IMG/VR virus record: IMGVR_UViG_2541047960_000005
Origin: a virus
Lineage: Duplodnaviria; Heunggongvirae; Uroviricota; Caudoviricetes
Direction: 5' to 3' (one strand)
DNA length: 43,137 nucleotides
In this document: piece after piece, positions 22,650 through 22,841 of the stretch
Position numbering within the stretch: position 1 is the first letter of the stretch
How the letters are laid out: each line of letters starts with the position of its first letter
Notes under the pieces: model-generated
Told to the model about the DNA's origin: nothing
Database searches by the model: none
What the model saw: the letters and a program-made list of their open reading frames with translations, nothing else
Translations under genes and position numbers: made by a program

Positions 22650-22841
22650 TTATTTGTCATGCTGGCCGGGCAACAGATGCGTTGCATCTGTTGCCAGCCT
22701 TCTCCTGCAGGCTTCAATAACCCACGCTGAAAAGTTACCGGATCCTTTATGCTCAAGGGCGATGTTGATCTGTTCAATCATGTGATTGGGGAAACGGATA
22801 TTGCGGGTTGTGGTTCTGCGGGTCCGGTTTTTCGATGACAT
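22650..22841 (-). CDS. ribbon-helix-helix (CopG/Arc/MetJ-like) DNA-binding protein
   Basis: ATG 22841 with AAGGA 7 nt upstream; MSSKNRTRRTTTRNIRFPNHMIEQINIALEHKG... fits an RHH beta-strand plus two helices; antisense to the late operon. Confidence 0.5.
   Translation of the reverse strand: MSSKNRTRRTTTRNIRFPNHMIEQINIALEHKGSGNFSAWVIEACRRRLATDATHLLPGQHDK

Follow-up and report, generated by a model that had tools for sequence, protein, structure and literature searches.

The window, by which we mean the whole 43,137-nucleotide stretch of DNA analysed here, is a lambdoid prophage whose late genes run in the order lysozyme, Rz/Rz1, a TonB C-terminal-domain protein, the open reading frame (ORF) that is the subject of this study, an HNH endonuclease, the small (TerS) and large (TerL) terminase subunits, and the head and tail genes. 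The ORF lies on the minus strand at 22650–22841 and, as read from the sequence, comprises 63 codons and a stop, with its ATG at 22841–22839 and a TAA stop codon at 22652–22650. Its translation is MSSKNRTRRTTTRNIRFPNHMIEQINIALEHKGSGNFSAWVIEACRRRLATDATHLLPGQHDK, and its assignment to the DUF3950 or YlcI/YnfO family draws on Pfam, NCBIfam, and PHROG matches, PGAP annotation, dN/dS, and family alignments. A Shine-Dalgarno motif, AAGGA (22849–22853, minus strand), is found directly in the sequence 7 nt upstream of the ATG. An alternative GTG start at 22901 would yield an 83-aa protein, but PGAP and the family alignments alike place the start at the ATG. The divergent neighbour, an HNH endonuclease gene of an HK97-type packaging module (22883–23248, plus strand; PF01844, phrog_589, PGAP), begins after a gap of 41 bp; the convergent neighbour, 141 bp away, encodes a TonB C-terminal-domain protein (22167–22508, plus strand; PF03544; ‘TonB family protein’ in PGAP); and the TerS gene is of the Terminase_2 type (23539–24102, plus strand; PF03592, phrog_641). 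The 63-aa minus-strand ORF, its ribosome-binding site, and the 41-bp spacing to HNH described in the initial annotation are all borne out by the sequence.

The same annotation had called this the only minus-strand gene in more than 25 kb of late genes, and its standing alone over about 25 kb agrees with the ORFs of the window and with the PGAP annotation of a prophage in E. coli CE10 that is 99.9% identical over window positions 20000–26000 and served as the comparison locus. In the CE10 prophage, all genes from the ompC-like gene to the tape-measure gene are on the plus strand with the exception of the DUF3950 gene; the plus-strand run begins at ~14.8 kb, past the minus-strand ompC-like gene at ~13.2–14.3 kb, and further credible ORFs on the minus strand of the window start only near 40.1 kb. 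Several other features of the late region were recorded. The region from Q to lysis holds the ompC-like porin gene (window 13242–14384, minus strand); its near-identical counterpart in CE10 also has genes for tRNA-Ile and tRNA-Arg (listed with window 15100–15300). The portal region (27973–30395) is occupied by two ORFs in the window (27973–29337 and 29334–30395) and is annotated in CE10 as a frameshifted portal gene.

Family membership and distribution

The ORF is confirmed as a real gene, far beyond a chance ORF: its product matched Pfam PF13132 (DUF3950) with 71.9 bits against a cut-off of 25 (E = 3.9e-20), NCBIfam NF041551 (YlcI/YnfO_N) with 35.5 bits against a cut-off of 30, and phrog_949 with an E value of 3.4e-33. 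The gene is already known, in that RefSeq labels near-identical E. coli prophage copies ‘YlcI/YnfO family protein’ and that a copy with 100% identity exists. DNA relatives were present in 4184 of 5426 complete E. coli genomes (77%), with as many as 12 places in one genome, and 155 phage records also contained them. In E. coli K-12, DLP12 and Qin each carry a copy (ylcI and ynfO, respectively), and phage lambda carries a 64-aa copy identical to YlcI (complement 48110–48304 in LC730321) whose ATG is situated 199 bp from the right cohesive end, to the left of cosN. A literature search for YlcI, YnfO, and DUF3950 found no functional study.

The family is narrow, with 102 representatives at 50% identity among 1.84 billion proteins, and genuine matches were limited to Enterobacterales and one Pasteurellaceae genome. 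Lambda DNA was also encountered in the ‘genomes’ of unrelated bacteria (Streptomyces, Pseudomonas, Bacillales, and MAGs) as 3.5-kb contigs or contig ends, in the records L026, L029–L055, L058, L061, L076, and L086 among the contig matches and P0035–P0118 from ENA; where lambda cosN was found in such records, it stood at the expected distance from the DUF3950 match (L026, L029, L033, L039, L040, L044, and L061). This lambda DNA is evidently sequencing-control contamination, and it inflates the apparent taxonomic range of DUF3950.

Selection on the protein

Over the first 49 codons, the window and lambda copies differ by 23 synonymous and 4 non-synonymous changes (dN/dS ~0.02), and comparison of the window with lambda, ylcI, and ynfO over this span gave 22–25 synonymous and 4 non-synonymous changes, with dN at 0.036, dS saturated, and omega ~0.02. 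Because dN/dS is ~0.02 with dS saturated between clades, it is the amino-acid sequence rather than the DNA that is conserved, and the protein is under strong purifying selection. Residues 1–50, which comprise a basic arm, an IRFP strand, and two predicted helices, make up a nearly invariant core, and residues 51–63 are a non-conserved tail; across the family, the tails past residue 50 are unrelated or frameshifted. The core pattern IRFP ... NFSAWVxEAC is present, and in the family alignments I15, R16, I25, F37, V41, and C45 are invariant even at 35–58% identity. Two clades were recognised, one beginning MSSKNR...NH and associated with an HNH/Terminase_2 module and the other beginning MSTKNR...NQ and associated with a lambda Nu1 module.

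Within the 3′ end of the coding sequence, the repeat search, alignment, and RNA folding identified an inverted repeat (22669–22695) whose 12-bp arms match perfectly across a 3-nt loop and that is specific to the window lineage, i.e., the window and CE10. Alignment with JLK-2012, Lys8385Vzw, and the prophage at L008 (E. coli CP027459.1) indicates that a C-to-TT change made the 12-bp repeat out of a 7-bp quasipalindrome and frameshifted the tail, taking a 66-aa form to the 63-aa form; the change resembles a template-switch (quasipalindrome-correction) mutation. A role for the hairpin as a terminator or regulatory element was considered and rejected, given that it has no U-tract, is lineage-specific, and is explained by a quasipalindrome-correcting indel; since the C-to-TT event accounts for the repeat, we regard the hairpin as a mutational footprint and not a conserved element.

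Position in phage genomes

In E. coli lambdoid phages, the DUF3950 gene invariably comes directly before the packaging module and runs against the late operon, with left neighbours that vary (bor, ybcV, ybcW, gnsB, TonB-like, and Rz). The same position and orientation recur with two unrelated packaging modules, the lambda type and the HNH/Terminase_2 type: the distance from ATG to cosN is 199 bp in the lambda-type loci (lambda, DLP12, Qin, and others), and the gene adjoins HNH in the HNH/Terminase_2-type loci. The saturation of dS between the clades means that this linkage to the packaging side is old.

Lambda bor occupies this slot too, on the opposite strand in the accessory region that separates lysis from packaging genes, which raises the alternative that the gene is a host-directed moron whose product regulates chromosomal genes or binds a host protein or RNA and controls no phage gene. 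Such a product could explain the very strong conservation, which would fit a conserved host target, as well as the arginine-rich N-terminal arm and the existence of a few chromosomal homologues, which are located beside TonB-dependent receptor or CopC genes or in a sopB/pipD island. However, a crude consensus search predicted no promoter or terminator belonging to the gene itself, its base composition is not distinct, and, although the left neighbours vary, a packaging-side linkage old enough to saturate dS would be unusual for a freely moving moron. We consider this alternative unlikely. Among the chromosomal matches (L021–L025, L065, L066, and L078), the homologue either follows TonB-dependent receptor genes immediately, in the vicinity of copC/copD, or is found in a sopB/pipD island. 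The window’s convergent neighbour (22167–22508) is itself a secreted TonB C-terminal-domain protein, and its link to the TonB-receptor loci is perhaps coincidental.

Predicted fold

The protein was initially labelled a ribbon-helix-helix (RHH) protein, a label compatible with its sequence, in which a basic arm leads into N-I-R-F-P and a helix, and a turn of G-S-G-N is followed by F-S-A-W-V-I-E-A, a pattern typical of such proteins. In hhalign comparisons with Arc, Mnt, and CopG, NIRFP fell in register on the NLRWP of Arc/Mnt, with a P value of 0.0036 but a probability of only 9%. The AF2 monomer had an extended basic arm followed by two helices, with a core pLDDT of ~85, although a monomer cannot show the beta-ribbon dimer that defines the fold, and the best fold matches, weak and non-significant, include the RHH antitoxins ParD2 and CopA. 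On the other side, the Pfam RHH families had no match at E ≤ 1 for the window protein or 10 divergent relatives, PDB sequence and family-profile searches returned chance matches only (ribosomal uL16 and short pAgo), and fold searches with the window protein gave no significant match. The RHH fold is a plausible best guess, taken from the sequence pattern and the model.

A type II antitoxin of the RHH class (ParD/CopG-like) was rejected as an identity for the protein because the gene has no conserved co-oriented partner: its neighbours are the convergent and divergent plus-strand genes, and the sequence downstream of it differs among relatives and contains only a 33-aa non-conserved ORF.

The GTTAAC array and the probable cos region

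Five GTTAAC / ATGTTAAC motifs surround an AT-rich centre at 23343–23462, a feature defined by motif count and by co-occurrence with the Terminase_2 module; the window contains 7 copies of the extended motif ATGTTAAC, where 1.1 would be expected by chance, and 5 of the copies fall within these 120 bp. To the left of the array, a G/C-rich segment of 85 bp (23250–23335) is the probable cos core, as suggested by alignment with Salmonella phage FSL SP-016 (L108 1900–2010), and the Lys8385Vzw phage record stops near window position 23309. FSL SP-016 has HNH, the conserved cos-like core, and a TerS that is 49% identical to that of the window, and has no DUF3950 gene. Its terS start codon falls within a palindrome, GTAAACATGTTAAC, whose homologue in the window is the array's first pair of motifs; the founding palindrome of the array, ACATGTTAAC, overlaps that start codon. 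From this placement of the FSL SP-016 terS ATG it follows that the E. coli phages carry an insertion or expansion of ~190 bp between the founding palindrome and the present terS start, made up of the AT-rich centre and the extra GTTAAC copies; terS in the E. coli phages now starts at GTG.

The initial annotation had proposed that the protein could bind this array or repress the late and packaging genes, and the model weighed here joins the two, with repression acting through the array. Between the gene and terS there is no repeated motif other than the array, and similar AT-rich palindromes are found upstream in some DUF3950-bearing satellites (TGTTTAAACA in L079 and L105; GTTTAACAC in L008). 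However, the array is present in all HNH/Terminase_2 relatives and absent from the lambda, DLP12, Qin, and PhiR42 loci, and the lambda-type proteins nevertheless share residues 10–18 (TTTRNIRFP) with the window protein; the founding palindrome occurs at the terS start of a phage without DUF3950; and the array is 500–620 nt from the gene, past HNH and the cos core, at the position of lambda’s cosB. Since the array tracks HNH/TerS, is missing from lambda-type loci, and has its palindrome in the DUF3950-less FSL SP-016, it belongs to the packaging module, and by analogy with lambda cosB its motifs are probably TerS or cos-associated sites rather than a DUF3950 target. The proposed binding finds no support in these comparisons, repression of the late or packaging genes is speculative, and we rate the array model as very improbable.

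Searches for other candidate sites in the phages were negative in the regions covered. No operator-like repeat was detected within 200 nt upstream of the gene in either phage type; the upstream regions of the lambda-type and HNH-type loci had two 8-mers in common, which is about chance, and no shared k-mer of 9 nt or longer; satellite-like GGTG-N-CAC palindromes in the window formed no cluster near the DUF3950 gene; and Rfam gave no match on 21800–23700.

Transcription signals

The sole sigma-70-like candidate promoter upstream of the gene is a weak one (CTGACA-17-CAGAAT, 9/12; 22943–22971, minus strand) located inside the HNH ORF. It is not above chance, the crude consensus scan having returned 3 sites against 2.2 expected, and in PPyecE its -10 hexamer is not preserved. 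For the phage gene, scans for promoters and terminators in the window, DLP12, and a satellite returned no site above chance, and the scan of the window found no terminator-like site. To include the ATG, a leftward transcript must start inside or beyond HNH, which would make it antisense to the ribosome-binding site and start codon of HNH.

Expression in lysogeny, as the initial annotation suggested, is addressed indirectly by the K-12 orthologue. In stranded RNA-seq of MG1655 (PMC12288877), the convergent genes ybcW and ylcI overlap in their transcription in at least 50% of 58 samples, so that ylcI of DLP12 is transcribed without lytic induction. Transcription in the prophage state is therefore plausible by extension from this orthologue, which belongs to a cryptic prophage and not to the prophage of the window.

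In DLP12 itself (L012 3583–3610), a good sigma-70-like sequence directed from the side of ylcI towards cos/nohD (GTGACA-16-TATCAT, 10/12) lies ~36 bp left of cosN and overlaps the palindrome GATAATGATTATC beside cosQ; if it is active, it is one place where a divergently encoded repressor might act.

Homologues in phage satellites

Most of the divergent homologues belong to PICI-type satellites with the gene order int, alpA, ant/bro, DUF3950 (on the opposite strand), and icd through primase, in which DUF3950 is the lone opposite-strand gene between alpA/ant and the icd-primase operon. The ~110 bp upstream of the satellite gene contain 3–4 copies of a 10-nt palindrome at near-fixed offsets of ~-107, -84, and -37, and these palindromes overlap divergent promoter-like hexamers, TTGACG leftward and a TATAGT-like sequence rightward; three palindrome copies were reached in 0 of 200 shuffles. 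The palindromes are element-specific (TGTGCGCACA; TGTTTAAACA in L079 and L105; GTGCGGCCACAC; and GGTGCAyAwACAC) and vary together with the residues that precede IRFP (SAKKN, SGYKG, SATKK, and STTKG), a co-variation that is confounded by linkage. The layout is that of a classical repressor and its operators, and what links DUF3950 to it is the adjacency of the palindromes together with the linkage-confounded co-variation. Operator-like palindromes of this kind, situated within the ~130 nt upstream of the DUF3950 match and on the side of the icd-primase operon, were found in satellites of many Enterobacterales (L067–L105) and look like an undescribed operator system.

One satellite is embedded in a prophage of the window’s own type. 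At L008 (E. coli CP027459.1; 5590–6363 and 6641–8321), a PICI-like satellite is inserted in terL at the Walker-A region; it has a gene for a 60-aa DUF3950 protein, directly followed by a predicted intrinsic terminator, and a second gene, preceded by GTTTAACAC repeats, for a 120-aa protein (P0216) in which DUF3950 is fused to the N-terminal domain of TerS. In P0216, residues 12–60 correspond to the DUF3950 protein of the window (E = 2e-10), and 67–119 are 66% identical to residues 2–54 of the window TerS. The fusion ties DUF3950 to a cos-recognition domain, where DUF3950 may perhaps be only a dimerisation module.

The fusion bears on a second alternative, in which the phage protein is a packaging accessory that works with TerS at cos, for instance in choosing the site, in termination, or in protecting the prophage cos. 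Both the P0216 arrangement and the position of the gene next to the cos/packaging module in two unrelated terminase systems would suit such a factor. Yet the antisense orientation speaks against high late expression, related HNH-TerS phages are without the gene, P0216 may employ DUF3950 for dimerisation alone, and neither the chromosomal nor the satellite homologues are beside cos; we looked for a lambda-type cosN beside the satellite DUF3950 genes and found none, and the satellite copies are therefore not passengers of cos. Lambda packaging has been reconstituted in vitro and its cos mapped genetically, and to our knowledge no such factor has been described. We regard a packaging accessory as a distinctly improbable identity.

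A third alternative is cross-talk between helper and satellite, in which the phage protein would mimic the satellite protein by binding its operators, or poison it by forming heterodimers, and so control PICI induction or interference. Helper-embedded PICIs are a described class (PMC10111431), and the family is common to lambdoid helpers and their PICI-type satellites, including the helper-embedded one in a prophage of the window’s type; the satellite copies hold a repressor-like position with operators, and the extreme conservation of the phage core fits a conserved interaction partner. Against this, the phage and satellite cores are only 35–45% identical and their arm residues differ, and the published model of Gram-negative PICIs is built on activation by AlpA and does not mention a DUF3950-like factor (PMC6092414, PMC11773190). 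As a rival account of the phage gene, cross-talk seems to us improbable.

Discussion

The gene at 22650–22841 is a real member of the DUF3950 family, under strong selection at the protein level and conserved in its position and orientation. The product would be a small dimeric DNA binder with a basic N-terminal arm, a DNA-reading strand (TRNIRFP), two helices, and a dispensable tail, made from a leftward transcript of its own while the late operon is silent, i.e., in the prophage, and it would probably act as a repressor, by analogy with the satellite homologues. We put the chances of this general model, a small RHH-like DNA-binding regulator expressed from a leftward prophage-state transcript and acting as a repressor, at about even. 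The RHH-like fold, DNA binding, prophage-state expression, repressor role, and target are parts of it that we infer, and any specific target we rate much lower than the model as a whole. Because the transcript in the window would cross the start of HNH in antisense, the likeliest role of the regulator would be either the silencing, in lysogens, of the neighbouring HNH-terminase nuclease genes or cross-talk with satellite operators.

These roles can be joined in one reading, which we offer tentatively and hold to be doubtful. DUF3950 proteins would be a distinct group of minimal operator-binding repressors common to lambdoid helpers and Gram-negative PICI-type satellites; in the satellites, which are now described as having no master repressor, they would act at the three element-specific palindromes to control the divergent icd-primase promoter; in the prophage, the phage copy would silence packaging nucleases or manipulate satellites; and the DUF3950-TerS(N) fusion would be a decoy that blocks the TerS sites of the helper.

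The gene is ordinary in the sense that it is annotated in thousands of genomes. Some value lies in its belonging to a family without a known function despite its presence in lambda, K-12, and 77% of complete E. coli genomes, the strong selection on it, and its link to the packaging boundary. If the product is a prophage-state repressor or a cross-talk factor, it would be a new regulatory element in the best-studied temperate phages, and it could also represent a missing repressor of Gram-negative phage satellites. The comparative results make the GTTAAC array a poor candidate target, and the satellite operators and the HNH/terminase leader better ones.

Comparison with known systems

The closest known counterparts are YlcI, YnfO, and the lambda ORF, which share with the window protein the family, 88% identity over residues 1–52, the slot, the orientation against the late operon, and the variable tail. 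Nothing separates the lambda, YlcI, and YnfO copies from cos and Nu1/NohA, which they face at 199 bp from cosN, whereas in the window the ORF is parted from cos by an HNH gene and belongs next to an HK97-like packaging module; synonymous differences between the two clades have reached saturation.

The RHH proteins Arc and Mnt of P22, two phage repressors whose promoters are arranged divergently or in antisense, resemble the window protein in being small and in having a basic arm, a strand of the form N-hydrophobic-R-aromatic-P, and two helices, but there is no significant sequence or fold match between them, and the Arc/Mnt module is immI whereas DUF3950 occupies the slot before cos.

Lambda morons of the bor/lom type are prophage-expressed genes within late regions. 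The DUF3950 gene resembles them in lying between the lysis and packaging genes and, as bor does, on the strand opposite the late operon, and its orthologue too is transcribed in uninduced cells. Bor and Lom are envelope proteins, whereas DUF3950 appears to be a cytoplasmic, regulator-like protein whose gene has no predicted promoter or terminator of its own and is fixed in position relative to the packaging module. The Gram-negative PICI-type and helper-embedded satellites, finally, have in common with the window both the DUF3950 domain and its encoding by a lone opposite-strand gene in an otherwise unidirectional element; the satellite copies differ from the phage copy in having triple palindromic operators and, in L008, a predicted terminator, neither of which accompanies the phage gene.
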